Assembly (NCBI GenBank): GCA_012519515.1
Contig: JAAYQC010000085.1
Span: 1-57,866 of the forward strand
From: Bacteroidales bacterium
GTDB lineage: Bacteria; Bacteroidota; Bacteroidia; Bacteroidales; VadinHA17
Reading direction: 5' to 3'
Length of the DNA stretch: 57,866 nt
This document shows, piece after piece, positions 41,154 to 57,866 of the stretch; position 1 is the first letter of the stretch, and each line of letters begins with the position of its first letter. A program made the position numbers and the translations under genes. Below the pieces are notes generated by a model. That model saw only the letters and a program-made list of their open reading frames with translations, had not been told where the DNA came from and made no database searches.

Positions 41154-44100
41154 ATGGTCAGGAAGTTCATCATACTGGGTTTGCTTTTGATCCTTCTTCC
41201 GGCCGGACGCCTTTTTTCACAGGCCAAACCGGCATTTAGCGGCGATCCGATAAAATTCAAGGATGAACTTCTGACTTTTATGGGTCCGGTTCTTCCTGAA
41301 GACAAAAGTGCAATACTGAATACTTTCATTGCAAGATGGGACAGTTCCGCCTTCAACAAGGAGAATATGACCATAATCATCGACCTCTCGACCCAGCTGA
41401 CGGCAAGACAGATAAGGGCCAATCCGCATTTCATCCAGTTTCTGCAGACACTCACCGATTTCTCCACTTACAACAAAACCGATGCCTTTTTGAATTACTG
41501 GCTGACCGGCCTTTCCGAAATGATCTTTAATCCGAAGATAAGGAATGAGAGCCTTGCAAGGTATATCGAGAACACCAGCCTGCTGATAAGAGACAACCTG
41601 CTGATTAACACGGGATCGGTAAAATGGAAAGCCAAAAATGCCGATTTAAAGTTCACTCATGATACTTCGTTTCATATTGTCCTGAACAATGTCACGCTTA
41701 CTTGCTACTCTCAGCGCGACAGCACGGAAATATACAAGGCATCAGGCATTTTCCATCCCGATCTGCAGGAATTCCACGGAACTCAGGGAACCATCACATG
41801 GGAAAAGGCAGGTTATCCCGCGAATGATGTATATGCTGAGATCAGCGATTATATTATCGACGTAACAAGGAATACATTCACATGCGATTCAGCCCGGCTC
41901 ACAAATAAATCGTGGTTCTCCGAACCGGTTTACGGTGTACTGACCGATAAGGCTGCAACTATAACAAGCAGCAACAGGGCAACCTTTCCTCAGTTTGAAA
42001 CTTACAGGAAACAATTCAAAATTAAAAATCTATACAAGGGTGTGGATTTCGAAGGAGGACTTCTATTTGAAGGCGCCCTTATTAAGGGAAGAGGTGAAAA
42101 AGCTTTTCCCGCGATGATAAACCTTTTCAGGAACGACACGCTCTTCATAAAGATAGCCTCAGCCGACTTCGTGTTCTCAAGCAGTGGTATAAACAGCCAG
42201 GAAACCCAGGCAACAATATACCTCGGACAGGATTCCATTTACCATACAAGCCTCGGGTTTTCTTTCAACGGACCGAACCGGAAACTAAACCTTTTCCGGA
42301 CCAACAATCCCGTCTCACACAGCCCCTACTACAACACATTTCACAATGTCGACATGTATTTTGAAAACCTGTCGTGGAATATGGACGAGAAAAATGCTGT
42401 TATTTCGAGACCGATGGGTGCTGCAATGGGACAGGCTTTGTTCGAGTCGTCTACCTTTTTCGACTCGAATGATTTCATGAAACTGATGAACCTCGACAAT
42501 GAACATCCGCTTACAAGACTCAGGAAATTCAGCGAGTGGTACTACTCCGAAACATTTCCCGTGAGTGAATTTGCCAAATGGCTCAATAAATCAGAGGAAT
42601 ATGTTACAGCCCTGTGCATCGACATGGCAAAGCGGGGATTTATTTTCTATGACCAGTCGAATCAGGAAGTTACCATCAAGCAGAAGACCAGGGATTACAT
42701 CGACTCCTATGCCGGGAAAAAGGACTACGATGTAATTTCAATTTTCAGTGAGACCAGGGCTCCGCTCGACAACGCTTTTCTTGATCTTAAAGACTTCAAT
42801 CTGACAGTTAACGGCGTTGAAAGTATTTTTATAAGCGACTCCCAGAAGGTAGCCATTTTCCCCGCTGACAAGCAGATAGTGCTTGGGAAAAACAAACAGT
42901 TCAGATTTGACGGAGCAGTTCTTGCCGGCCTTTTTACCTTCTTTGGCAAGGATTTCCAGTTCAACTACGATACCTTTGTTATAAATCTTCAGAGCATCGA
43001 CTCCATTAGGATCGCGGTGGAAACCGAAGAGCTTGATGAATACGGCAATGCCATTGCACTTTATGTCAATAGTGTGGTTGAACTGGGCTCGGCCCAGCTG
43101 TATATTGACGATCCGGATAACAAATCGGGACTGAAAAGCCTGTCCCAGTATCCTATAGTCAACTCAACATCCTCATCCTACATCTTTTACGACAAGATAG
43201 AAGGCCTGGAGGGCGTCTACAAGAGAGATGATTTCTATTTCATGATAGACCCCTTCACATTTGAAAACATCGATCACTATTCAAGCTCTGAACTGAGACT
43301 TACAGGTGTTTTTTTCGGGGGAAATATAATTGAGCCTTCAAAACAATACCTGACAGTCCAGGAAAACAACTCCCTCGGATTCCAGATGAGCATTCCGGAA
43401 GAAGGACTTAAGATCTACGACGGGAGGGCCGTACTATTCGATCAGATACATATGAGCAGCAAGGGCCTGATCGGCAACGGGGTACTAAAGCACCTCACCT
43501 CCACCTCCACTTCAGACGAGTACCGTTTCTTCCCCGACTCAATGCTTACAAAAGCGAACACCTTTAATATTGCAGATGACGGCTCCGGACTTTTCCCCGA
43601 ACTGACAGGCACGGATGTTGAAATAAAATGGTTTCCCGGGAAAGATGAATGGCATGGCTTCAATACAGGCGGCAAAAGATTCAATATGTTCGCCAACGGT
43701 ACCACGCTCGACGGAAGCATCAATCTGAAGAGCACCGGTCTCCAGGGTAGCGGTATAATCGACATGCCCGATTCAAGGATTACTTCAGGGCAGTTCGCGT
43801 TTGAAACGCGAACAATCAGGGCCGACACCGCAGACTACAACCTGAAATCCTCATCCACAAGCGGATATGCCTTTATCGCCGACAATGTCAATGCCGACAT
43901 AAACTTTGCCACGAAGCTCTCGAGATTCCATCTTAACACCGATTCTTCGGTAGTGAAGTTTCCGGAGGTACAGTATATCTGCACCATGACTGATTTTGAA
44001 TACAACCAGGATACGAAGATCCTCTCGATGGAACAGAAAGGGAAAAAAGTCTCCGGACTTATGCCGGCTGACCAGCTGCTAAGGACCAGTCTGAGCTCTC

Positions 44101-45659
44101 CTGAAAAACCAACATTTGTTTCAACAAACAACATCCGCGACACTATTTCCTTTACATCACTAAAGGCGAGCTACAATTTAAATGAGGAATATATTGAGGC
44201 CGAAGACATTAACTATATCCGTATAGCCGATGCCCTCATTCAACCCGACATGGGCAGAATCACCATCAGGAGAAGAGCGGCTATCGATAAGCTGACGAAT
44301 GCCCTTGTTGCAGTCAACAACCGTCATATCCTGCATTCGGCCAATATAGAAATTGAGTCCTCAAGGAGATATTCGGGAAGCGCTGTCTACGATTACACAG
44401 ACGACAGCAAGCGCGTTCAGCAGATCAGCTTTCCGGAGATTACCGTCGACACCATGGCAACAAGTGCAAAGGGATTCATCCCTGCCGATGCTGAATTCAT
44501 GCTTAGCCCTGCATTCTCGTTCTCCGGTGATGTTAACCTGTATTCAAACTCCCCGAATCTGCTGTTCACCGGTTCGGCAGGCATCGTCCACGACTGCGGA
44601 CGTATCAGGAGCCATCCCGTGAAATTCAAATCGTTCATCGATCCGATGAATGTAATGATCGCGATATCAGAAAAACCCAGGAATCCCAATGACGAAATAC
44701 TTGTTTCGGGTTCATTCATTAATATCGATTCCCTTCATATCTATCCCGCCTTCCTGAGCGAGAAGAAATCATGGTCGGATGCAGGAATGGTGAATGCAAC
44801 CGGATATCTGTGGTACAACAAGCAGGGAAACAGGTACCAGATATCATCGCTTGAAAAGATCGCCGATCCTTCAGCATCAGGGAACATGGTTTCACTCGAC
44901 AGAACTTCCTGCATCTTAAACGGTGAAGGAAAACTGAATTTCGGAACAAACTTCGATCATGTTCTGATGGCTACGGCAGGGAATTTCGTTAACAACACCG
45001 ATTCAGGGAAAATTGAGATCAGAACAATTCTGGGGCTCGATTTCTTCTTCTCCCCTGAAGCCCTGAAAATGGTGAGCGATGAGATCAGGATGATGCCTAC
45101 GCTCAAGCCGGTCAGCCTGAATTCGGATTTCTATATCAAGGGCTTAGACGATCTTATCGGGAAAAGTGCCGCCAACCAGATAAGACAGGAAACCGGCCTT
45201 TTCGGCTCCTCCGCTAACATGCCAAAGGAATTCACCTATGAAATTCTCCTTAATGATGTTACGCTTTACTGGAATGAGGCTTCCTCATCATTCCGCTCTA
45301 AGGGGAAGATCGGAATCGGCTATATCGGCGGACAGCCGGTCAACGTGTATGTTGACGGATATGTGGATATTCAGAGAAGAAGAAGCGGCGATATGATTGA
45401 CATTTATCTCAAGGCCGACCCTTCAACATGGTATTACTTCTCCTATTTCAGAGGTGTTATGATGGCCCAGGCCGGCAATATTGAATTCAACAAGCTTATA
45501 AGCTCCATACGGCTGAGAGACAGGAAGCATCCCGATAATTCTGAAAGAAAGCCTTATACCTATATGATAGCTGTCGAGGACAGACTCGGCCGCTTCCTCA
45601 GAAGAATGACCGAAGAAGAGGAAGCTGTAATCAATCAACTCGACGGCCTGGTCAGATAA
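41154..45659 (+). CDS. Very large secreted hypothetical protein (1501 aa)
   Basis: Signal peptide MVRKFIILGLLLILLPAGRLFSQ. The frame is uninterrupted for 4.5 kb with ordinary composition. No catalytic motif was recognised. Confidence 0.7.
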   Translation: MVRKFIILGLLLILLPAGRLFSQAKPAFSGDPIKFKDELLTFMGPVLPEDKSAILNTFIARWDSSAFNKENMTIIIDLSTQLTARQIRANPHFIQFLQTLTDFSTYNKTDAFLNYWLTGLSEMIFNPKIRNESLARYIENTSLLIRDNLLINTGSVKWKAKNADLKFTHDTSFHIVLNNVTLTCYSQRDSTEIYKASGIFHPDLQEFHGTQGTITWEKAGYPANDVYAEISDYIIDVTRNTFTCDSARLTNKSWFSEPVYGVLTDKAATITSSNRATFPQFETYRKQFKIKNLYKGVDFEGGLLFEGALIKGRGEKAFPAMINLFRNDTLFIKIASADFVFSSSGINSQETQATIYLGQDSIYHTSLGFSFNGPNRKLNLFRTNNPVSHSPYYNTFHNVDMYFENLSWNMDEKNAVISRPMGAAMGQALFESSTFFDSNDFMKLMNLDNEHPLTRLRKFSEWYYSETFPVSEFAKWLNKSEEYVTALCIDMAKRGFIFYDQSNQEVTIKQKTRDYIDSYAGKKDYDVISIFSETRAPLDNAFLDLKDFNLTVNGVESIFISDSQKVAIFPADKQIVLGKNKQFRFDGAVLAGLFTFFGKDFQFNYDTFVINLQSIDSIRIAVETEELDEYGNAIALYVNSVVELGSAQLYIDDPDNKSGLKSLSQYPIVNSTSSSYIFYDKIEGLEGVYKRDDFYFMIDPFTFENIDHYSSSELRLTGVFFGGNIIEPSKQYLTVQENNSLGFQMSIPEEGLKIYDGRAVLFDQIHMSSKGLIGNGVLKHLTSTSTSDEYRFFPDSMLTKANTFNIADDGSGLFPELTGTDVEIKWFPGKDEWHGFNTGGKRFNMFANGTTLDGSINLKSTGLQGSGIIDMPDSRITSGQFAFETRTIRADTADYNLKSSSTSGYAFIADNVNADINFATKLSRFHLNTDSSVVKFPEVQYICTMTDFEYNQDTKILSMEQKGKKVSGLMPADQLLRTSLSSPEKPTFVSTNNIRDTISFTSLKASYNLNEEYIEAEDINYIRIADALIQPDMGRITIRRRAAIDKLTNALVAVNNRHILHSANIEIESSRRYSGSAVYDYTDDSKRVQQISFPEITVDTMATSAKGFIPADAEFMLSPAFSFSGDVNLYSNSPNLLFTGSAGIVHDCGRIRSHPVKFKSFIDPMNVMIAISEKPRNPNDEILVSGSFINIDSLHIYPAFLSEKKSWSDAGMVNATGYLWYNKQGNRYQISSLEKIADPSASGNMVSLDRTSCILNGEGKLNFGTNFDHVLMATAGNFVNNTDSGKIEIRTILGLDFFFSPEALKMVSDEIRMMPTLKPVSLNSDFYIKGLDDLIGKSAANQIRQETGLFGSSANMPKEFTYEILLNDVTLYWNEASSSFRSKGKIGIGYIGGQPVNVYVDGYVDIQRRRSGDMIDIYLKADPSTWYYFSYFRGVMMAQAGNIEFNKLISSIRLRDRKHPDNSERKPYTYMIAVEDRLGRFLRRMTEEEEAVINQLDGLVR

Positions 45660-46641: not shown

Positions 46642-46649
46642 TGAAATAT

Positions 46650-46789
46650 ATATCAAAACAATATCATCATGATATATTATTATATCTATTTGATATTGTC
46701 ATAATATCGTTTTGATATTAATATGATATTATTATGATATCGCATTGATATCTCCATGATATTGTTTTGAAATATACATGGGATTATCC
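46650..46789. repeat. Iteron-like array: two inverted ATATCA units plus about 11 tandem 11-bp units with a TGATAT core
   Basis: TGATAT occurs at 46670, 46691, 46713, 46724, 46735, 46746 and 46757. Degenerate units are at 46680 (TTATAT), 46702 (TAATAT), 46768 (TGAAAT) and 46779 (TGGGAT). Spacing is exactly 11 bp from 46713 to 46779. Inverted ATATCA units are at 46650 and 46661. Confidence 0.85.
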
Positions 46790-48848: not shown

Positions 48849-49032
48849 TTATCGCATATAATTATCTGTGTTACTGAGCTTTACAATCAACAAGTCGGGT
48901 TAACGGGAAATTAATCAGGTTTTGACCAATGGCATGATTATTTAGACTTAAGAACCCGATTTTGGGCTTTTTGGAGTTCAAAATGACCTGGATCCGGTGT
49001 GCAAAACGTCAGATTTGCCAGCTGGTGAGCAG

Positions 49033-49100
49033 AAAGTGGAAAGTGGAAAGTGGAAAGTGGAAAGCAATACATAATACATCGCCTATAATACATAATACAT
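49033..49100. repeat. Heptanucleotide tandem arrays: (AAAGTGG)x4, then (AATACAT)x2 - 7 nt - (AATACAT)x2
   Basis: Perfect units at 49033-49060, 49066-49079 and 49087-49100. Everything is in register with period 7. Confidence 0.9.
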
Positions 49101-49158
49101 TGTTTAGACTTTCGCTAAAGTTTCATTTTAAGAGACCTTGCTCGACCTGCACGACTTT

Positions 49159-49182
49159 CCCCATGCCCTATGCCCTGTGCCG
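49159..49182. repeat. Heptamer array CCCCATG CCCTATG CCCTGTG, the reverse complement of the CACAGGG-type unit
   Basis: Three units at 49159-49179 plus CCG. The array lies 23 nt beyond the stop of the YdjC-like gene and is inverted relative to the arrays at 50233 and 51192. Confidence 0.85.
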
Positions 49183-49204
49183 TAAATAAGCTATATTATT
49201 TATA

Positions 49205-50140
49205 TTATATGGTATCGAATTTCACAAGTCGTACCTGAGATTTTTCCAGAGTCTTTTTTACATCCGGATCAGAAAGAACTTTTACTTCACCGGCTCTTCC
49301 TGGATGACACATTATTTCGGAGATTCCATTTGGTAATTGCATTATAATTGAATTCAAGTCACTCACACTTGCATTTTCAAAAAAAGAATCAATAAACCAG
49401 TCAGGCATTTTAATTCCTGCTTCATTATTAATTTTTTCCTGTTCAATAAATGCAGCCGGACCCATCACTTTCATCATCGGAAAAGATTTAAACGGATGAA
49501 GCAGGCCATAGACAATCATTTCTTTTGCCGCTGATGCTCCTCCACTACCCTTATTTACATTCATTTTTTTGTAAATGCTGTAGGGCACCGGATTTCTCAT
49601 GGGAACATTGTATTGCAGGCATATTTCTCTCATTACAATATGAAACGGAGTGTACAGTGCTGTTATATGATGATGGCAATTAATATGATCAAGAGGCACT
49701 TCTGAAGAAAGGAATAGTTTGACCTGTGCATTTAATTCTTTTCGGACATCCTCAATTTTTATGTCTGGCAGCTTAGACATTATTTGATCGGGTGAGAAAA
49801 AATTACCGTTTTTGTCTACAAGGCTGGGTATTTCACTCGCGGGAAGAAGCGATTTCCCTTCAGTGATATTCAAATGAATACCGATGGGCAAATCAGGATT
49901 TTCAGAATGAATACGTCTCAGTGCAGACACGGGTTCCGCAAAGGTTACAAAAGCACTGGTACTGGTAACAATACCATTTCGGTACGCGTCGATTATTGCA
50001 TTGCTTGTCTCATCGTTCATACAGAGATCATCTGCATTTACGATTATCAATTTGTCTCCGGATATAACTTTCGGTTGTATCTGTTTTGAACATGAACAGA
50101 AGATTGAAAGCATGATAATAGAAATGAATAGTTTATGCAT
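49205..50140 (-). CDS. YdjC/ChbG/HpnK-family carbohydrate deacetylase with a lipoprotein-type signal
   Basis: IIVNADDLCMNDETSNAIIDAYRNGIVTSTS (the metal-binding D region) and the later INCHHH are typical of the YdjC family. The N-terminus is MHKLFISIIMLSIFCSC. Confidence 0.75.
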   Translation of the reverse strand: MHKLFISIIMLSIFCSCSKQIQPKVISGDKLIIVNADDLCMNDETSNAIIDAYRNGIVTSTSAFVTFAEPVSALRRIHSENPDLPIGIHLNITEGKSLLPASEIPSLVDKNGNFFSPDQIMSKLPDIKIEDVRKELNAQVKLFLSSEVPLDHINCHHHITALYTPFHIVMREICLQYNVPMRNPVPYSIYKKMNVNKGSGGASAAKEMIVYGLLHPFKSFPMMKVMGPAAFIEQEKINNEAGIKMPDWFIDSFFENASVSDLNSIIMQLPNGISEIMCHPGRAGEVKVLSDPDVKKTLEKSQVRLVKFDTI

Positions 50141-50232
50141 AATATTATACTACACTTTGGTTAATTCTGCGAATTAGGGGTTGAATTTAATAAATACGCG
50201 GCTGCAATTATTCAAAAAATATGCAGAATTAA

Positions 50233-50309
50233 GTACAGGGCACGGGGCGCAGAGCACGGAGCAAAGAGCACAGGGCGAAAGAACGGCGTGCGGCACGCGG
50301 CATGCGGCA
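50233..50309. repeat. Eleven-unit heptamer array (GYACRGR-type units grading into TGCGGCA-type units)
   Basis: GTACAGG GCACGGG GCGCAGA GCACGGA GCAAAGA GCACAGG GCGAAAG AACGGCG TGCGGCA CGCGGCA TGCGGCA. The array ends 1 nt before the stop codon (50311-50313) of the lipoprotein gene. Confidence 0.85.
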
Positions 50310-50310
50310 A

Positions 50311-50988
50311 TCATTTTTTTGTCCAAAAATAGCCCTCAAAGATCTTTTTATATTGATTTGTCAGGACTTCTTGATCGAGTGGTTCCATGTCTTCCTTAAA
50401 TGACTTTCGATAGAATGCAACATTGTCTTCTTTTGAATCGACAATCATGGCATATATAGTCGAATAGGCTTTTATTGGAGTCTGATAATACATTCCCAAT
50501 GTTAATATACCAAGAGCAGCACCTTTTAGAATTTCTTTGCCATAGTTTCCTTTTACTCTGGTGAAACCTGCAGATATGATAATCAGCCCAAATCTTGTTT
50601 CATTTGCCTCCAATATTTTATCCAGGGTAGGTGTTATTCTGAGATTTGTAATGCTCTTGTTTCTATCAGCTGTCAGAATCAGTTCTTCGTATTCTTTCTC
50701 AAGAGTTATGTTGATTGCAGAGTCAGTCAGAAAAATATCCCCGGTGATTGGAATTTGCTCATCAAAGCTTTTTATAACATTGATATTCAACTGCTTTGAA
50801 ATTGCCGATATGCTGTCATCCAATTCTCCACTATTACCCTTCTTTATCATTGAGATATAGGAATAAGGCTCAAGTAGTTTAAGATTTGTAACTTCTGAAG
50901 GTTGGACATTGGATGTCAAAAGTTTGGTTGCAGTACAGGATGATAAAATAATGCAACTTAAAATTATAAAGATGGTACGTTGTTTCAT
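50311..50988 (-). CDS. Hypothetical lipoprotein (225 aa)
   Basis: MKQRTIFIILSCIILSSC lipobox-like signal and AT-rich codon usage. No family was recognised. Confidence 0.55.
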   Translation of the reverse strand: MKQRTIFIILSCIILSSCTATKLLTSNVQPSEVTNLKLLEPYSYISMIKKGNSGELDDSISAISKQLNINVIKSFDEQIPITGDIFLTDSAINITLEKEYEELILTADRNKSITNLRITPTLDKILEANETRFGLIIISAGFTRVKGNYGKEILKGAALGILTLGMYYQTPIKAYSTIYAMIVDSKEDNVAFYRKSFKEDMEPLDQEVLTNQYKKIFEGYFWTKK

Positions 50989-51025
50989 GAGTATATAATT
51001 TTTATTTCAATGGTCTGATAGCCTG

Positions 51026-51100
51026 CCCCGCTCAAGCGGGGGAACCCACATGTATGAAAATTATATTCATACGTGTTTGTGTATGCAATACATGTGGGTT
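51026..51100. other. Two stem-loops: CCCCGC-TCAA-GCGGGG, and a 13-bp inverted repeat AACCCACATGTAT / ATACATGTGGGTT
   Basis: Hairpin 1 is at 51026-51041. The inverted-repeat arms are at 51043-51055 and 51088-51100, separated by 32 nt. Both lie upstream of the lipoprotein gene start. Confidence 0.7.
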
Positions 51101-51191
51101 TCATCATAATTTAATTTTGATTTTAGTGGTATGATACCTGTAAGCTGGTCTTTTATATATTATATCTAACAATTCAAATATAAAGAAACAG

Positions 51192-51310
51192 GCACAGGGC
51201 ACAGGGCGCAGGGCACAGGGCGCAGGGCTCAGGGCACAGGGCACAGGGCGCAGAGCACAGGGCTCAGGGCGCAGGGCACAGAGCACAGGGCACAGAGCAC
51301 AGGGCGCATA
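51192..51310. repeat. Seventeen-unit heptanucleotide tandem array (consensus GCNCAGG)
   Basis: Units read in register: GCACAGG x2, GCGCAGG, GCACAGG, GCGCAGG, GCTCAGG, GCACAGG x2, GCGCAGA, GCACAGG, GCTCAGG, GCGCAGG, GCACAGA, GCACAGG, GCACAGA, GCACAGG, GCGCATA. Confidence 0.95.
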
Positions 51311-51541
51311 CAGTGGCATACTGTTCTTTATGTTGCAAGCTTCCTGGCTTATTATGTTTATCCTTGCCTATCTGTTCCATATTTCTAGTCTCAGCTTTGC
51401 TCCGGATTCTACTTGTGCTGCATCTTTTCCCCAAACAATGGGGGCTCAATCCGGATAACGACTCAGATGTATTAATTGTTGTCTTTTTTGTCAATGTCAT
51501 TTACAGCTTCGTCGTATTATAACGTGCTGCAAAAACCTTAC

Positions 51542-54500
51542 CTATTTCTCAAAATCCAGTTCTGGTAAAATAATCTTTGATTCCTTTTCTTTATCAGAAT
51601 CTTTCCAGTATACGATAAAATTAATCCTGGCTTTTTGTAAGTGATATCCCTGATCCTTAAGTTGAGAGATAATCTCATTAAATTTCTTTGAGAATTTTAA
51701 TACTATATCTCCTGTATTATCTGATAGACCTTCGTCCTTAATGCATAAAATATCACCAGGTATGAGACTGTTTATTTGGAATTGCCTGTACTCAAAAAAT
51801 CCAAGATTGACATCACTAAATGATAATTGCATGGTTATCTTTTCAGGTAATTCATAATTCTCACAATCAACAAGAGAAACTAATCCATCTGCCTGAAATG
51901 TGTCAAAAAAGTTACTGTTATGATGGATAAACAGATTTTGTCTGGCTCTGGTCATTGCAACGTATACAATACGCTTGTTTTCATCACTTGACAGGTCGCA
52001 ATTCTCGAGCATAATAAAAACATTATCAAACTCTTTGCCTTTCGCTTTGTGTATTGTTGATACAAAGATTGTCTCTCCATCTTCCCTTTGAAAATCTTCT
52101 AATTTTGATTCACGTATAAATACTTCTAAATCAGAAAAATATTTTATCCTGGTATTTGTGGATTCGAAGTCTCTGATAATGTTTTTACAGATTTCCCATT
52201 TTGAGCTATTGTCAAATCTTCTGAATAACTCTGATTTACTTCTTTCCCATTTTTTATCACTAATTGAAGGTGAATCATCCGTTGATTTAAGGGTGTCAAG
52301 AAAACAACGGACTTCTAAAAGATTATACAAATTGAATCCGTCATTAGTTTGGATCAGCTTAGCCTTGAATCCATTCTTTATAAGCAGACCTGTAATATTT
52401 AAAGCTTCTTTATTTGTCTGTGTCAATATGCATGTAGTACCTGAGAGGTCAGTCGAAATAATGTCATTTACAGTAGGAACTATCAGATTATTACTTTGAT
52501 ATTTAACAGTTTTGATAATCCCATTTTTCTTGTCAGATGCAACAATCGGCAATGTTTTTAATCTATGTTTTATTGTCTTGACAAATTGATTAGAGAATGT
52601 AACCAGGTTGCTTTTACTTCGAAAATTATCAAAGAGCTCATATTTTTTTGCTTTCTTTTCAGTGATAAACTTCCCCATATAAACAGAATCCGCCCCTCTG
52701 AATGTAAAAATGTTCTGATCATCATCACCGACAGCCAGCACTCTCATATCTTCATTTTCTTCTATAAGTTCATTAATCAGATTATACTCATGCACATCCA
52801 TATCCTGAGCTTCATCAATTACAAGAACCATTTTTGATATACGGCTCTGTTCAACTTCATGATTTTTAATCTTTTCAATAGTAGCATTAATTATCTCATC
52901 AGATTTTTCGATACTGCCAACTTTTCCCAATAAATCAAAACAGTAGGAATGGAATGTTTTGATTTCGATAAATCTTGCCGCATTGCCATAAAGTTCTATC
53001 AATCTTTTCTTGAATTCTGTTGCAGCTGCTCTTGAAAAAGTGAGCATTAAAAGTTGTTCGTGCTTAATGTCCTCCATCAGAAGCAGGGAAGCAAGTTTGT
53101 GAACCAGCACTCTTGTTTTTCCGCTCCCGGGACCGGCTGCAATAACTATGTATTTGGATTCTTTATCATTAATAATTGCCAATTGAGCAGTGGATAGTGA
53201 TCCGAATAACTGCCTGAATTTTGCCGGAGTTAAATTTCTATTAATATCATCAAGACGGCTTCCCTTAAAGTATTTGCTGAGAAAAACAGGATAGTTTAAT
53301 TTAAAATAGTCATCCACAAATTGCAATGCTCCGCGATAATCTTCCAGCATTTTCTTCGCATACTCTCCAACAATGTGTATCTGCTGCACTTTGTTCTTGT
53401 AAAACTGATCCAGCTTTTGATAATCCTCTTTTTTATACTGAGCTTTAATATTTTGTTCGACCCTCTCGATCGTCATTGTGTTATATATAACCAGGAATCC
53501 TCCTTCAATTTTAATTGCTTCAATCCTGGATAAATAGAATAATGTATCTTCAATATCATCTGTTGTAACTTCAAATTTGAATAGTTCAAGACTCTCCTTA
53601 TATGCTTCCTGTAGTTCAATAACTGAAAATTCTATCAATACCTCTTCCGCGTTTACATCTGCATTATTGTCAATTTTTCCATAAAGAAATTCAACGATGA
53701 ATCTTGCAAGAGAATGTCTCTTTTTTAATTTTTCCTGTAACTCATCTTTAGGTTGGATGCATTGGATGACGACATGGTTTTTTGAGTTCTTCAGATTTTG
53801 TCTTTTAATCCAATTCTTAATCGCCCAGAAATTGATAATGGTTTTAAATTTATTGGGCGTAACATGCTGGCAACCCGCTTCAATAGCTTTCTCATTCAAT
53901 TCCTTGAGATGATATGTCTTTTCATTTTCTTCCAGTTGCTGAAGGAAAAATTCTTCTATTTGTCGATAAGTTTCAGCAATTGATTTTGACCGGTTTACAA
54001 GGTCTCCTTTTTTTATAAAAGCGGTCAGGTCCCTGGTGTCTGCCAGGATCTTCTCTTCGCGAAGTAAAGTAATTATTTTAATAACTTCTTCCTTTACAAT
54101 ACCAAGGTGATCAGATATATAATCAATTCTGGATTCAGCAACTTCGTCATTGGAGTGTCTTTTGCTTTTGCTTGAAATTAGTTTTTTTATTATCCTGATT
54201 GCTTTTATTTTCTGCTTTTCACTGAACCGTTCTGAAGAGTTGATTTTGTCAATTGCTTCCTGTGCATTATTTGTCAGGATACTATTTGCAAAAATATGCG
54301 GTACATTTTGACCCCGTTTCAAGTAACCTGCCTCTTCGAGTGCAGAAACAGCAGTTTTAACGCGTGTTTCAATTTCAGTTATTCCTTCATCCCAGCCAGC
54401 CTTGCGGGCAATCTCCAATGCAGAATTGGATGCAGTCGACCGGAATCTGGTAATCCCTTTAATGGCTTTCCAGACCTGTTTTATCTCCTTGATACTTAAT

Positions 54501-56350
54501 TTGGTTTGATTAAGGAGTGCAAAGTGTTTTCCAAGATCATTCTCATTATACAGAACATAACAATCAGCAACAATATTCTCATCTCTTCCGGCTCTTCCTG
54601 ACTCCTGGACATAGTTTTCCAATGAATCAGATATCTCATAATGGATAACCATCCCAATGTCTTTTTTGTCAACACCCATTCCGAAAGCAGAAGTTGCAAC
54701 CATTATTTGAACATTACCGGAGATAAAAGCATTCTGGTTTTCAGACTTTTCCTTGACATCCATTTGGCCATGATAAGGCTTTGCATTGAAACCATCCTCG
54801 TTTAGTCTCTTAGCCAATGAATATGCTTGCCATGTCCTGGAAACATAGACAATGGTGGGACATTTTTTACTTTCAATAAGGCTACGGAGCTTGTTATATT
54901 TCTCTTGTTCATTACCTTCTTCAAATACCCTATACTGAAGATTTGTTCTTGATTCCCCGGATCGATATACTTCAAGATTCAGAGATAATTTTTCTTTAAA
55001 GTAGTTGCAAATATCTTCAATTACCTTTTGCTTGGCAGTTGCAGTAAAGCAAGAAACCGGAATACTATCCTGAAGGTTTTTCTTTTCCTGAAAGGCTTTG
55101 ATAAAGTCACCGATATACAAGTAATCGACCCTGAAATCCTGTCCCCACGAAGAAAAGCAGTGAGCCTCATCAATGACAAAGCGGATAATGGTTCTTCCCA
55201 GTAAAAGCCTTTCGATGGTTTTTGATCTCAAGGACTCCGGTGAAATGTAAAGTATTGAAGCAGTACCATCTTGAACTCTTTCAAATGATTTACACCGTTC
55301 AATAGGATCGAGTAAACCATTGATTGTAACCGCATATGTAATATTGATCTTCTCAAGATTATCAACCTGGTCCTTCATCAGTGATTGCAGAGGAGAGATT
55401 ACAATAGTCAGTCCTTTAATATTCTCCCCACTCATTAAAGCAGGCAATTGGAAGGTTAATGATTTTCCCCCTCCTGTTGGAAAAACAACTAAAATCGATT
55501 TATTATCAATTGCAGCCTTAACTGCATCTTCTTGTAAAGATTTTCCACCGTAGGTTCTAAATGAATTAAAGCCAAAGTAATGATTAAGACCTGCGTAATG
55601 ATCCAGAGATTTATTGCAATAACTGCATCCGGGTATGCATGGTTTATTTCTAAGAAGATACATTATTCTTTCAACTTCCGGATAGTTTTTTATTACCCAG
55701 GGAGGAGTGATAGATTTTCTGTTGTTGCAATTAATCAATGCCAGGCAATAGGCCAGCTCTATCGGATGTGCAGTAATTATTTCAGCTAATTTTGAATTAC
55801 CGCAAATAAAATTGTTGAATCTTTGACGTATTAAATTCTCCGCATTATCAGGACTACTGGTTCTGAAGCCAATGAATTCAAAAAAAGACTGGAACTCATT
55901 TTTATCATTTAGCAGGAGATAGTAGATGATTTTTAATGAATTATCCAGTGCATTAAAAGCAGAGACTTCATCATTAAACAAATCCCTGGCTTTAATTGAA
56001 TCATTCAAAGGATTATTTAATTCTTCTGATTGAAGCTTATCATCTTTTAACAGATGGTGATATGGCTCCATTGGGAAAAGCAATGGAGAGAGAAATAATG
56101 TATCAATTACCTTAATATGCTGTATCCCGGAATCTGCTAAAGGTTTCTGAAGATATTTTAAATCATGGTTTAATATGTTGTGGCCACAAATAAAACTTGT
56201 TCCATTAATAAATGAAATGAATTCCGGAATTGACCCTGAATGGAAAAGAATCCCGTTTTCCTTTATTCCGCCAATGTCACGGATTTCCTGGTTTTTCAGA
56301 CTGACTTCGATATCAATGAAAGCGATTGATTTCATATGTATCTGGTTCAT
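51542..56350 (-). CDS. Giant tri-modular protein: DnaQ-like 3'-5' exonuclease + RecQ-family SF2 helicase + UvrD/PcrA-family SF1 helicase (1602 aa)
   Basis: A single uninterrupted frame. Exonuclease motifs: FIDIEV and GHNILNHDL. RecQ motifs: FPTGGGKSLTFQLPA, VIDEAHCFSSWGQDFR, FTATA, VATSAFGMGVDK and QESGRAGRD. UvrD motifs: AAGPGSGKT, TFSRAAATEF, VIDEAQD, GDDDQNIFTFRGA, TIHKAKGKEFDNVF and VYVAMTRARQNL. Confidence 0.85.
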   Translation of the reverse strand: MNQIHMKSIAFIDIEVSLKNQEIRDIGGIKENGILFHSGSIPEFISFINGTSFICGHNILNHDLKYLQKPLADSGIQHIKVIDTLFLSPLLFPMEPYHHLLKDDKLQSEELNNPLNDSIKARDLFNDEVSAFNALDNSLKIIYYLLLNDKNEFQSFFEFIGFRTSSPDNAENLIRQRFNNFICGNSKLAEIITAHPIELAYCLALINCNNRKSITPPWVIKNYPEVERIMYLLRNKPCIPGCSYCNKSLDHYAGLNHYFGFNSFRTYGGKSLQEDAVKAAIDNKSILVVFPTGGGKSLTFQLPALMSGENIKGLTIVISPLQSLMKDQVDNLEKINITYAVTINGLLDPIERCKSFERVQDGTASILYISPESLRSKTIERLLLGRTIIRFVIDEAHCFSSWGQDFRVDYLYIGDFIKAFQEKKNLQDSIPVSCFTATAKQKVIEDICNYFKEKLSLNLEVYRSGESRTNLQYRVFEEGNEQEKYNKLRSLIESKKCPTIVYVSRTWQAYSLAKRLNEDGFNAKPYHGQMDVKEKSENQNAFISGNVQIMVATSAFGMGVDKKDIGMVIHYEISDSLENYVQESGRAGRDENIVADCYVLYNENDLGKHFALLNQTKLSIKEIKQVWKAIKGITRFRSTASNSALEIARKAGWDEGITEIETRVKTAVSALEEAGYLKRGQNVPHIFANSILTNNAQEAIDKINSSERFSEKQKIKAIRIIKKLISSKSKRHSNDEVAESRIDYISDHLGIVKEEVIKIITLLREEKILADTRDLTAFIKKGDLVNRSKSIAETYRQIEEFFLQQLEENEKTYHLKELNEKAIEAGCQHVTPNKFKTIINFWAIKNWIKRQNLKNSKNHVVIQCIQPKDELQEKLKKRHSLARFIVEFLYGKIDNNADVNAEEVLIEFSVIELQEAYKESLELFKFEVTTDDIEDTLFYLSRIEAIKIEGGFLVIYNTMTIERVEQNIKAQYKKEDYQKLDQFYKNKVQQIHIVGEYAKKMLEDYRGALQFVDDYFKLNYPVFLSKYFKGSRLDDINRNLTPAKFRQLFGSLSTAQLAIINDKESKYIVIAAGPGSGKTRVLVHKLASLLLMEDIKHEQLLMLTFSRAAATEFKKRLIELYGNAARFIEIKTFHSYCFDLLGKVGSIEKSDEIINATIEKIKNHEVEQSRISKMVLVIDEAQDMDVHEYNLINELIEENEDMRVLAVGDDDQNIFTFRGADSVYMGKFITEKKAKKYELFDNFRSKSNLVTFSNQFVKTIKHRLKTLPIVASDKKNGIIKTVKYQSNNLIVPTVNDIISTDLSGTTCILTQTNKEALNITGLLIKNGFKAKLIQTNDGFNLYNLLEVRCFLDTLKSTDDSPSISDKKWERSKSELFRRFDNSSKWEICKNIIRDFESTNTRIKYFSDLEVFIRESKLEDFQREDGETIFVSTIHKAKGKEFDNVFIMLENCDLSSDENKRIVYVAMTRARQNLFIHHNSNFFDTFQADGLVSLVDCENYELPEKITMQLSFSDVNLGFFEYRQFQINSLIPGDILCIKDEGLSDNTGDIVLKFSKKFNEIISQLKDQGYHLQKARINFIVYWKDSDKEKESKIILPELDFEK
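51911..53200 (-). other. Domain: UvrD/PcrA-type SF1 helicase core (aa ~1051-1480)
   Basis: Motifs I, Ia, II, III, V and VI are all present in canonical order. Confidence 0.8.
54551..55567 (-). other. Domain: RecQ-type helicase core (aa ~262-600)
   Basis: Motifs I, II (DEAH), III, V and VI are colinear with E. coli RecQ motif strings. I recognised no RQC or HRDC region downstream. Confidence 0.8.
55946..56335 (-). other. Domain: DEDD-type exonuclease module (aa ~6-135)
   Basis: The ExoI-like D-I-E (FIDIEV) and ExoII-like (ICGHNILNHDLKYL) motifs are recognisable. ExoIII is not confidently identified. Confidence 0.6.
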
Positions 56351-56439
56351 GACTAATTTTGAAAGTTCAATGTAATAAACACATTGGCTTTTATATGGAT
56401 TTTATACACAGAGCATCGACAATCTATGTTGTAATATAA

Positions 56440-57866
56440 TCAATGGATTACAACTTTATGCACTTCCAGAACGTTGTCGTCAGTCAGAACGATGAGATAA
56501 ATACCAGGATAGTATTTCGAAATATCAAATTCATGGATATCACTATCCGCAATTCCGGTTTCCAGAATACGGCCATAAATATCATATAAAGCAATTTTCT
56601 TTCCTGTGAACCTCCGTTTCAGCGGAACTTTAAGCAGGTTCCCATTTATATAAGGTAATAGAGTTCTATCCTGACTATCATCAATTTCTATCTGAAGAGA
56701 TCCGGATATTCCCGAACCGTCATTTGCTGTGGCAACTGCTGTTACCAAACCATAAGCTTCGGCAGTAACTAGGCCATCTAAACTGATTGTTGCCCTGCCT
56801 GTGCCGTTATTAATGGACCATGTAATTGTCTTGTCGCTTGCATCTGCCGGTGTTACTTCAGCTGTTAACTGAAGGGTCCCTCCTATTTCATTAATAATGG
56901 CTTCCCCATTCTGACCACTTACGGAAATGCCGGTTATGCCAATGAAATCTCTGACAATATTTATAGCGATGTCTCCGGAAACTCCTGAACCATCAACCGC
57001 GGATGCGATGGCTGTGACTGTACCATATGCAACGGGAGTAAGGAGTCCCGTTGAGCTTATTGTTGCCTGCCCGCTTCCGTTGACAACTGACCAGTTCACA
57101 TTTTTATTTGTTGCATTTGCCGGACTGACAGCTGCATTAAGCTGAAGAGAGGTCTCCAATCCGGTTATGGCTACCGATCCTCCTGATGCTGTAACAGTGA
57201 TTGACTCCACTAAAACTGTCTGGTTGGTAACAGAAATAGTTGTTGTTGCATAAATATCAGTTCCCCCATTAGCTGTGGCTCTGATAATCACATTACCATT
57301 GGATACTGCAGTCACCAGTCCGTTCTGACTGATTGTTGCCTGACCTGTCCCTCCGGTAATTGACCAGACAACAGATTTGTCTGTAGCGTTTGACGGAGTG
57401 ACGGTTGCAGAAAGCTGCAATGAGCCACCCGGGGTTGAAATTGCATTTCCCCCGGATATTGATATTCCGGTAACCGATATAACCTGGTTGTTTATTGTGA
57501 TTGTAATTTCCCCGAATATTCCCGAACCGTCATTCGCGGTTGCCCTTGCGACCACCGAACCATTGGAAACTGCAGTGACAACACCGCTGGAATTGATTGT
57601 CGCCTGGCCTGTACCGTTGGCAATACTCCAGGTGACGGTCTTGTTCGTGGCATTAGCAGGAGTGACTGTTGCCGTTAAGGCCAATGTACCCTTATCCTGT
57701 GTTATGGTTGACGCTCCACCGGCTCCCGTTACGGAAATACTCGAGACAGGAATAACCTGACCGCTGATAGTAATAACCAACTGATCAGAGACACCGCTGC
57801 CATCATTAGCCGTTGCACGGGCCGTAACAGTACCGTTGGAAACTGCAGTGACAACACCACTTGAAT
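56440..57866 (-). CDS. Cell-surface protein with tandem Ig-like (Big_2) domains and a type A T9SS C-terminal sorting domain (5' end outside the window)
   Basis: The frame stays open past the track TTG at 57780 to the window edge. There are at least 5 repeats of L.LTATV.PANATNK.V.WS...G.G.ATI...G.VTAV..G.V...ATA.DGSG. The C-terminus (IALYDIYGRIL...GIYLIVL) is Por_Secre_tail-like. Confidence 0.8.
   Translation of the reverse strand, partial: SSGVVTAVSNGTVTARATANDGSGVSDQLVITISGQVIPVSSISVTGAGGASTITQDKGTLALTATVTPANATNKTVTWSIANGTGQATINSSGVVTAVSNGSVVARATANDGSGIFGEITITINNQVISVTGISISGGNAISTPGGSLQLSATVTPSNATDKSVVWSITGGTGQATISQNGLVTAVSNGNVIIRATANGGTDIYATTTISVTNQTVLVESITVTASGGSVAITGLETSLQLNAAVSPANATNKNVNWSVVNGSGQATISSTGLLTPVAYGTVTAIASAVDGSGVSGDIAINIVRDFIGITGISVSGQNGEAIINEIGGTLQLTAEVTPADASDKTITWSINNGTGRATISLDGLVTAEAYGLVTAVATANDGSGISGSLQIEIDDSQDRTLLPYINGNLLKVPLKRRFTGKKIALYDIYGRILETGIADSDIHEFDISKYYPGIYLIVLTDDNVLEVHKVVIH

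Follow-up and report, generated by a model that had tools for sequence, protein, structure and literature searches.

An accessory gene of a Bacteroidales bacterium encodes a DnaQ-like exonuclease fold, a RecQ-type motor and a UvrD-type motor in one chain

What does a bacterial gene do that encodes a nuclease fold and two helicases of different superfamilies in one chain, and does it belong to the host or to the traffic of foreign DNA? This question is raised by a gene on the minus strand of contig JAAYQC010000085.1 of a Bacteroidales bacterium (assembly GCA_012519515.1). The whole contig of 57,866 nt was analysed and is called the window here. In the original prediction, the gene was read as an exonuclease, a RecQ helicase and a UvrD helicase in one polypeptide, possibly a defence module rather than the housekeeping RecQ. 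The protein is a five-part DNA enzyme, which consists of a DnaQ-like exonuclease, a RecQ-type motor, a predicted winged-helix array, a UvrD-type motor and a β-rich C-terminal domain, and its gene is a stand-alone, horizontally mobile accessory gene. The known kind to which the protein is assigned is that of the helicase–nuclease accessory or defence proteins. The coordinates of the features are given in Table 1.

According to the open reading frame (ORF) list of the window and its translation, the gene is one unbroken frame of 1602 codons, as had been predicted, and the longest ORF of the window. It encodes a three-enzyme fusion with all of its catalytic motifs kept. Conservation was counted in 50 representatives, each taken from a cluster at 50% identity, and the catalytic residues and the architecture were kept across these divergent sequences. 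D13, E15, D63 and D117 of the exonuclease fold, the Walker A motif, motif II and motif VI of both motors, and motifs III and V of the UvrD motor were invariant or nearly so. The near-invariance of the motor motifs points to selection on both ATPases, and the conservation of the catalytic residues suggests purifying selection on each of the three enzymatic modules. Most homologue alignments begin only at residues 4–6; hence, the true start of the gene may be M6 at 56335 (MKSIAF...), 15 nt inside the annotated ATG at 56350. The exact look-up of the protein in public assemblies gave no identical record.

The identity of the RecQ-type motor, a superfamily 2 (SF2) helicase, was confirmed by several models. 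Pfam matches to DEAD (aa 272–446, 7.9e-32) and Helicase_C (aa 483–589, 3.3e-22) were obtained, and the RecQ subfamily model of NCBIfam, recQ_fam (TIGR00614), was passed with 277 bits against a cutoff of 219.8. The core contains Walker A PTGGGKS, motif II DEAH and motif VI QExGRAGR. The nearest solved structures in the PDB were those of RECQ5, E. coli RecQ (1oyw, 1.5e-50), BLM and WRN (2e-38). However, the RecQ equivalog TIGR01389 was not reached, with 306.7 bits against a cutoff of 640.2, and its alignment stopped at model position 352 of 591, before the zinc-binding, winged-helix and HRDC parts. No HRDC or RQC match was given by Pfam in the 1602-aa protein, and the protein sequence has no Cys cluster after aa 600, where RecQ has its zinc-binding region. 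A RecQ orthologue was rejected because of the missed cutoff and the absence of the zinc-binding, winged-helix and HRDC region from the match. The expectation that the gene is not the housekeeping RecQ was thus borne out. Among the PADLOC models, the best matches of this module were to DpdF (3.5e-95) and PsyrT (7.2e-80).

The second motor was also recovered as predicted. In the superfamily 1 (SF1) core, Pfam gave UvrD-helicase (PF00580) from aa 1053 (3.6e-31), AAA_19, UvrD_C (PF13361, 7e-20) and UvrD_C_2 up to aa 1478. Motifs I–VI and the UvrD N- and C-terminal domains are all present, which places the module in SF1A; the motifs include Walker A AGPGSGKT, motif II DEAQD, motif III GDDDQ and motif VI VAxTRA, and the 2B region appears shortened. 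The solved structures nearest in sequence were PcrA, UvrD1, UvrD and GajB, and a Foldseek search with the AlphaFold model of aa 590–1602 returned UvrD, PcrA and Rep, down to 7.6e-23 (UvrD). The equivalog cutoffs were all missed (pcrA, 126 vs. 911 bits; uvrD, 112 vs. 1144; rep, 81 vs. 951), and an orthologue of UvrD, PcrA or Rep was rejected on this ground. Many GajB models of PADLOC matched this module, down to 1.9e-41.

The N-terminal module was more difficult to recognise. No Pfam match at E ≤ 0.1 was found for aa 1–260, a single-sequence search of the domain against the PDB gave nothing, and no curated exonuclease hidden Markov model (HMM) matched the window protein significantly. Weak Pfam matches occurred only in some relatives (DNA_pol_B_exo1 in 5 of 40, RNase_T in 2 of 40). 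A profile of 40 N-domain sequences matched TREX1-like DEDDh exonucleases in the PDB, the best being 9l8b at 8e-4, and this alignment spans ExoI (FxDxE), ExoII (GHNxxxxD), a common DTLxLS motif and ExoIII. The AlphaFold model of the domain was confident, with a predicted local distance difference test score (pLDDT) of 93 and a predicted template modelling score of 0.90. The top Foldseek match of this model was the exonuclease–helicase DinG of S. aureus (8zef/9ii8; 4e-5, probability 1.0), and further matches were to a TREX1 homologue, the exonuclease domains of family-B polymerases (PolB), DnaQ, a Cas-associated DnaQ domain, oligoribonuclease (ORN) and REXO2, most with a probability of at least 0.9. 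The domain has the RNase H-like DnaQ fold in the AlphaFold model and the Foldseek comparison.

The four metal-binding acidic residues are D13 and E15 in ExoI, D63 in ExoII (G56-H57-N58..D63) and D117 in ExoIII (N112-x-P114-x2-D117), and they are present in 49–50 of the 50 representatives. D83 is invariant within an invariant D83-T84-L85. In all canonical DEDD enzymes, the general-base position of ExoIII is His or Tyr. Position 112 is Asn in 45 representatives, Ser in four and Cys in one, and His or Tyr occurs in none. Judged by its residues, the domain would fall outside both the DEDDh and DEDDy classes, since one defining residue, at position 112, fails. H98 and K102 are invariant and lie in a flexible, low-confidence loop of the model. 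The predicted DEDD-like exonuclease was thus upheld for the fold and the four acidic residues, by profile and model, and not for a Pfam match or a His/Tyr base; a DnaQ-like exonuclease is supported in its fold and metal ligands, and its 3'-5' activity is only predicted. An exhaustive HMMER search with aa 6–250 gave 1206 clusters (50% identity) at E ≤ 0.001. The complete members are nearly all 1580–1690 aa long, and the domain therefore appears essentially restricted to the exonuclease–RecQ–UvrD architecture.

Between the exonuclease fold and the RecQ core lies a helical region in which C183, C238, C242 and C245 are invariant in the representatives, and a weak match to the PyrI_C zinc domain was found by Pfam at aa 205–251. 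This pattern suggests a putative Cys4 metal site, placed ahead of the helicase rather than behind it.

The region between the two motors had been described as a helical, K/E-rich linker; in the AlphaFold model, it is more than a plain helical spacer. The model of aa 590–1602 (1013 residues) has a mean pLDDT of 85, mostly 70–90 in the inter-motor part. A helical hairpin is followed by approximately four helix-helix-strand modules that resemble winged helices, and then by long helices that lead into the UvrD core. Only sub-threshold Pfam matches to winged helix-turn-helix families (TrmB, MarR_2, IclR, RPA_C) were obtained, in individual family members, and a profile of 14 inter-motor sequences gave no sequence relative in the PDB. 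The tail of the last ~120 residues, in which no motif had been recognised, was modelled as a β-rich domain with two helices at a pLDDT of ~90. Its conserved residues are D1513, G1532, S1554, Y1569, W1582 and P1596. A profile of 35 C-terminal sequences had no match in the PDB or Pfam, and the Foldseek results of the 1013-residue model were dominated by UvrD-like chains and hence uninformative on the tail.

Table 1. Features of the gene and the window (window coordinates, nt), and annotated chromosomal contexts of relatives.
Feature	Coordinates	Strand	Residues (aa)	Basis or content
Whole ORF	51542..56350	(-)		1602 aa; stop codon 51542-51544
N-terminal DnaQ-like (DEDD) 3'-5' exonuclease fold	55931..56335	(-)	~6-140	Family profile, AlphaFold and Foldseek, conservation
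Helical Cys-bearing region	55565..55930	(-)	~141-262	Conservation, weak PyrI_C match
RecQ-type SF2 helicase core	54551..55564	(-)	~263-600	Pfam, NCBIfam, PDB matches, conservation
Inter-motor region	53216..54550	(-)	~601-1045	AlphaFold secondary structure
Predicted winged-helix-like modules		(-)	approx. 639-681, 742-780, 811-864, 903-963	AlphaFold
UvrD/PcrA-type SF1A helicase core	51902..53215	(-)	~1046-1483	Pfam, NCBIfam, Foldseek, PDB, conservation
C-terminal β-rich domain	51545..51901	(-)	~1484-1602	AlphaFold, pLDDT ~90
Low-GC block	49000..56440	.		YdjC-like gene, 225-aa hypothetical gene, target gene
Context P0002 (88% identical)				Gabija (complete, 6 kb upstream); Eco57I-family methylase gene and ResIII helicase gene; GmrSD ending 6 nt upstream; three transposase genes, IS21
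Context P0083				MvaI/BcnI restriction enzyme, cytosine methylase, Vsr
Context P0031				KwaA/KwaB, SMC-like ATPase, Panacea-domain and HepT/MNT genes
Context P0068				Type I restriction-modification and large ResIII helicase
Contexts P0017, P0061				HigB, PIN or HipA toxins, transposases
Context P0049				Bro-N, YhcG
Context P0075				Small hypothetical genes
Context P0054				Clean single-gene insertion, LptC on one side, SurA on the other

The size and spread of the family were explored by a word-indexed protein search, in which at least 8000 proteins were matched. The best 120 of these were all 1597–1634 aa long and 68–99% identical, and the names among them include Flexilinea (Chloroflexota), Brocadia and Kuenenia (Planctomycetota), Syntrophales and many Bacteroidota. 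Where annotated, homologues carry the label 'RecQ family ATP-dependent DNA helicase'. Genomes of 185,579 species, one per species, were then scanned with peptide patterns taken from the window protein only, and 429 matched stretches encoding a relative were found. The best 80 of these and the window, 81 copies in all, were used to compare loci; their mean pairwise identity was 76%, across Bacteroidota classes. Copies 67–70% identical to the window protein are spread over different phyla, in genomes or metagenome-assembled genomes labelled Brocadia, Fibrobacter and others. The nearest relatives (86–88% identical) lie in unrelated neighbourhoods. A conserved core syntenic locus, which would have spoken for a housekeeping gene, was not seen, and the neighbourhood was different in every locus examined. 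In 62 of 71 loci, the GC content of the gene was below the flanking value, with a mean gap of 3.7 points (Wilcoxon p = 3e-10). The gene family is sporadic and horizontally transferred, and it shows the patchy distribution and horizontal transfer expected of defence-island genes.

Full-length relatives were also present on plasmids. In PLSDB they were found on Phocaeicola and Bacteroides plasmids (49% identity), in Aliarcobacter (36%), on several Nostoc plasmids (28–29%) and, as proteins of ~1700 aa, on proteobacterial megaplasmids (~30%); Thiothrix, Cereibacter and Sulfitobacter carry plasmid-borne full-length relatives as well. The plasmid contexts were mixed and include par/rep genes (Aliarcobacter, B. 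finegoldii), insertion sequence (IS) elements, toxin–antitoxin pairs and a Cas6/WYL locus. The Aliarcobacter copy is divergent from parAB and near rep. Distant relatives (28–31% identity) were seen on plasmids of three Nostoc strains, with two in N. punctiforme PCC 73102. At one of these loci (L092, pNPUN01 of N. punctiforme), an IS701 transposase gene precedes the copy, and secreted-nuclease and nuclease-inhibitor genes lie 1–8 kb downstream.

The loci were also aligned with each other as DNA. The blastn homology normally ended 0–3 nt upstream (75th percentile) and 0–13 nt downstream (99th percentile) of the ORF. A transposon-like element, with a DDE or RNase H fold in mind, was considered because of the RNase H-like fold and the single-gene mobility, and was rejected because there are no common termini and the DNA homology stops at the ORF ends; no inverted repeats flank the gene in the window. 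A phage-encoded gene was rejected since no full-length copy was found in the phage collections INPHARED or IMG/VR. Some copies are damaged. Two are split into two or three ORFs each on long contigs (L100:8001-12560 and L101:8001-12865), and the ORF of L002 is shortened to 1297 aa. These copies may be pseudogenes, or they may reflect assembly errors or long-read indels. The split copy of L101 is followed by a tyrosine integrase gene and an AlpA-like gene, as in an integrase-bounded element.

The neighbourhoods of the relatives were examined for partners. In an all-versus-all clustering of the flanking ORFs from the 80 loci and the window, no conserved partner gene was found, and the enzyme is therefore likely to work alone, without a fixed partner. 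The largest cluster of flanking ORFs was an HNH_2 endonuclease, which occurred in 10 loci and stood directly upstream of the helicase gene in seven, where it ends at or overlaps the helicase start codon (L004, L022, L024, L032, L033, L058 and L074). These genes match the 'HNH' models of PADLOC, down to 5.5e-97. In L004, L024, L032 and L074, the DNA homology extends ~950 nt through the HNH gene, and an optional two-gene form, HNH plus helicase, therefore exists. The HNH-linked helicases are not monophyletic.

The other neighbours were diverse, and their Pfam summaries were too heterogeneous to group, apart from HNH_2 and HepT. Nine chromosomal contexts were annotated with Pfam (Table 1), and in four of them restriction-modification, Gabija or Kiwa genes were found within 10 kb. 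The three nearest ORFs on each side of 60 loci were moreover scanned with PADLOC at E ≤ 1e-10, and 153 and 137 PADLOC families were matched. Among the matches listed are REase_I, MTase_I, mREase_IV, AbiEi/Eii, a retron-like reverse transcriptase, SoFic and PbeA, together with the candidates PDC-S41, PDC-S05, PDC-S13, PDC-S04 and PDC-S09, several of which were near full length (PDC-S41, 1e-283). A 653-aa full-length PDC-S41 match (L027:7272-9230, E ~1e-283) was among the three nearest ORFs in three loci. As a control, 38 ordinary genes from 1–48.6 kb of the window gave one borderline match (2.4e-11).

The window itself ends 1.5 kb upstream of the gene. The original prediction had placed the gene in an AT-rich, repeat-bounded segment. 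The AT-rich part of this claim stood: the GC content is 34.9% in the gene, 34.5% in the 225-aa hypothetical gene (50311-50988) and 37.5% in the YdjC-like gene (49205-50140), against 46.3% in the first 48 kb of the window. The repeats, however, do not bracket the gene. Heptamer tandem arrays occupy three successive spacers on its downstream side (49032-49181, 50235-50309 and 51191-51305) and consist of related G/C-rich units, (GAAAGTG)x4.7, (CCCTATG)x3.3, (ACAGAGC)x5.6, (GCGGCAC)x2.9 and (GGCACAG)x16, the last being the longest array at 51191-51305. No comparable repeats occur in the 89-nt spacer upstream. Two short ORFs, 51104-51319(-) and 51264-51500(-), cross the longest array and are probably spurious. 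Three long annotated genes are among the six neighbours: a Big_2 protein of the type IX secretion system (T9SS), the YdjC-like deacetylase and the 225-aa hypothetical protein. Farther away, AT-rich tandem repeats of 11, 22 and 33 nt and a 29-nt inverted repeat (86% complementary) lie at 46647-46780, in the spacer between the RsmE gene and a SprB-repeat gene, and a 1501-aa ORF at 41154-45659 (+) has no Pfam or NCBIfam match.

The protein was compared with known systems. When PADLOC v2.0 and NCBIfam 20.0 were searched, no full-length model fitted the 1602-aa protein; the best PADLOC matches cover only aa 253–646 or parts of 1050–1483, so that matches exist at the domain level only. In full-text literature searches, for which accession numbers of annotated homologues were used as well, no description of the exonuclease–RecQ–UvrD architecture turned up. 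Like WRN, to which the architecture had been likened, the protein joins in a single chain an N-terminal 3'-5' exonuclease fold and, behind it, the helicase core of a RecQ-family enzyme. The WRN exonuclease is of the DEDDy/RNase D type. In contrast, that of the window protein is DEDDh-like, of the TREX/DinG/epsilon type, and its ExoIII Asn belongs to neither DEDDh nor DEDDy. The window protein also shows no RecQ-type zinc cluster or detectable HRDC domain and adds a complete second motor of the UvrD type and a C-terminal domain. The exonuclease–RecQ fusion most likely arose independently of that in WRN, and the comparison would hold as an analogy only. Firmicute DinG is the best structural match of the N-domain and likewise places an exonuclease before an SF2 helicase, but its helicase is XPD/DinG-like, it has no SF1 motor, and it is a chromosomal stress-response gene.

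Among defence systems, Gabija resembles the protein in GajB, since the UvrD module matches both GajB models and GajB structures. This match is limited to the SF1 module, and no GajA/OLD-TOPRIM partner lies near the window gene. A Gabija system was rejected because no PADLOC match occurs in the six neighbouring ORFs and no partner is conserved in the loci compared. DpdF of Dpd and PsyrT/RqlH of PsyrTA are non-housekeeping RecQ-like helicases of defence loci, but they match at the domain level only, and no DpdF or PsyrT match covers the exonuclease or the UvrD module. With no dpd genes or PsyrA/RqlI antitoxin nearby and no conserved adjacent gene, Dpd and PsyrTA were rejected. RecBCD, AddAB, AdnAB, Nhi and Hna also combine one or more helicase motors with a nuclease and act on DNA ends or forks, and the SF1 module matches RecB, AddA and AdnB in structure. 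Unlike RecBCD, AddAB and AdnAB, the window protein carries its motors in one chain, and these are of different superfamilies and the same expected polarity; its nuclease is DnaQ-like and not PD-(D/E)XK.

From these results, we infer with about even chances that the enzyme acts in conflicts with foreign DNA, in phage or plasmid defence or against mobile genetic elements. The gene often adjoins defence, toxin–antitoxin or mobility genes, is partly plasmid-borne and is absent from the phage collections searched, and the highest PADLOC scores of the RecQ and UvrD modules are those to the defence helicases DpdF, PsyrT and GajB, which supports defence. More tentatively, the protein could be a single-protein immune or anti-plasmid system in which the RecQ and UvrD dual motor is joined to a 'DEDD-Asn' exonuclease, and the C-terminal β-domain or, in some loci, the operonic HNH protein discriminates targets. 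Motors of the RecQ and UvrD/PcrA families move along single-stranded DNA in the 3'->5' direction, and nucleases with a DnaQ fold trim strands from the 3' end. The enzyme would load where DNA offers a 3' tail, a gap or a fork, for example on linear phage DNA or on replication intermediates of phages and plasmids. The RecQ core and the winged-helix modules would then unwind the duplex, while the UvrD core, on the other arm or the same strand, would clear proteins or unwind the second arm. The N-terminal nuclease would digest the freed 3'-ended strand, and the replication of the invader would be aborted. The C-terminal domain, the availability of DNA ends and the HNH partner gene of some loci are candidates for the sparing of self DNA.

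Several observations weigh against a role in such conflicts. No PADLOC match was obtained among the six neighbouring ORFs scanned in the window; the defence module of the original prediction is favoured by the sporadic occurrence, low GC content, plasmid carriage and defence neighbours of relatives but not by an adjacent defence gene in the window. The scan of the relatives suggests an enrichment of defence genes beside them, with a small control and a count of families rather than loci. Some homologues lie between core genes (LptC/SurA) or beside plasmid par/rep genes. Defence genes that evolve fast are not usually conserved in sequence as strongly as this family is. We know of no established mode of cooperation for two same-polarity motors in one chain. 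Moreover, because the canonical His/Tyr base is absent, the exonuclease may be slow, use another base (H98/K102) or merely bind 3' ends.

The same conservation is typical of repair proteins, and it favours a different role, in which the protein would be an accessory enzyme of genome maintenance, comparable in function to WRN or exonuclease-bearing DinG, and would process stalled forks, gaps or recombination intermediates, either in the host or in large replicons. Its horizontal spread would then come from usefulness and not from fighting invaders. In structure, the N-domain comes closest to the exonuclease of DinG from S. aureus, which is a helicase–nuclease of replication stress, and the RecQ core resembles E. 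coli RecQ, BLM and RECQ5 no less than it does DpdF. Relatives on the megaplasmids or chromids of Alphaproteobacteria and Nostoc, and some chromosomal copies among core genes, are also consistent with this role. It is nevertheless considered somewhat unlikely, given the sporadic occurrence without synteny, a gene GC content foreign to the flanks, the recurrence of defence, toxin–antitoxin and IS genes as neighbours, the split copies that are possibly pseudogenes, and the lack of a recurring repair-gene neighbourhood in the loci compared. The plasmid-borne full-length relatives (Phocaeicola, Bacteroides, Aliarcobacter, Nostoc, Thiothrix, Cereibacter and Sulfitobacter), the chromosomal copy that abuts a tyrosine integrase and an AlpA-like gene, and the IS elements that often adjoin could instead indicate a cargo or maintenance function of plasmids or integrative elements, which would aid replication or establishment, serve plasmid competition or counter host nucleases. 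However, most of the 80 chromosomal loci have no element backbone genes, the DNA homology between loci ends at the ORF without common element termini, no phage or IMG/VR copies were found, and plasmid carriage is just as typical of defence genes; this function is regarded as improbable.

It is scarcely credible, and already contradicted, that the gene is the housekeeping RecQ of the organism, merely extended by fusion. The PGAP-style annotation as a 'RecQ family ATP-dependent DNA helicase' and the passing of TIGR00614 would agree with it, but the equivalog score of 307 bits falls short of 640, the match ends before the zinc-binding, winged-helix and HRDC region, few of the scanned species carry the family and its loci are variable, and the GC content of the gene lies 11 points under the host background.

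A role in conflicts with foreign DNA would not be the only reason for interest in this protein. The protein is a natural experiment, in which winged-helix modules tether a 3'-5' nuclease to two full motors that differ in superfamily but are expected to have one polarity, and known enzymes do not allow a prediction of how the RecQ and UvrD motors share a substrate. The exonuclease site is a chemical oddity, being a perfect DEDD site except for the Asn at its general-base position. In thousands of database entries, the name 'RecQ family ATP-dependent DNA helicase' is given to proteins other than RecQ orthologues. The architecture is absent from PADLOC v2.0. If the protein is a defence or anti-plasmid enzyme, it would add a family that is widespread, above all in Bacteroidota, whose members are under-represented in the set of tested systems.

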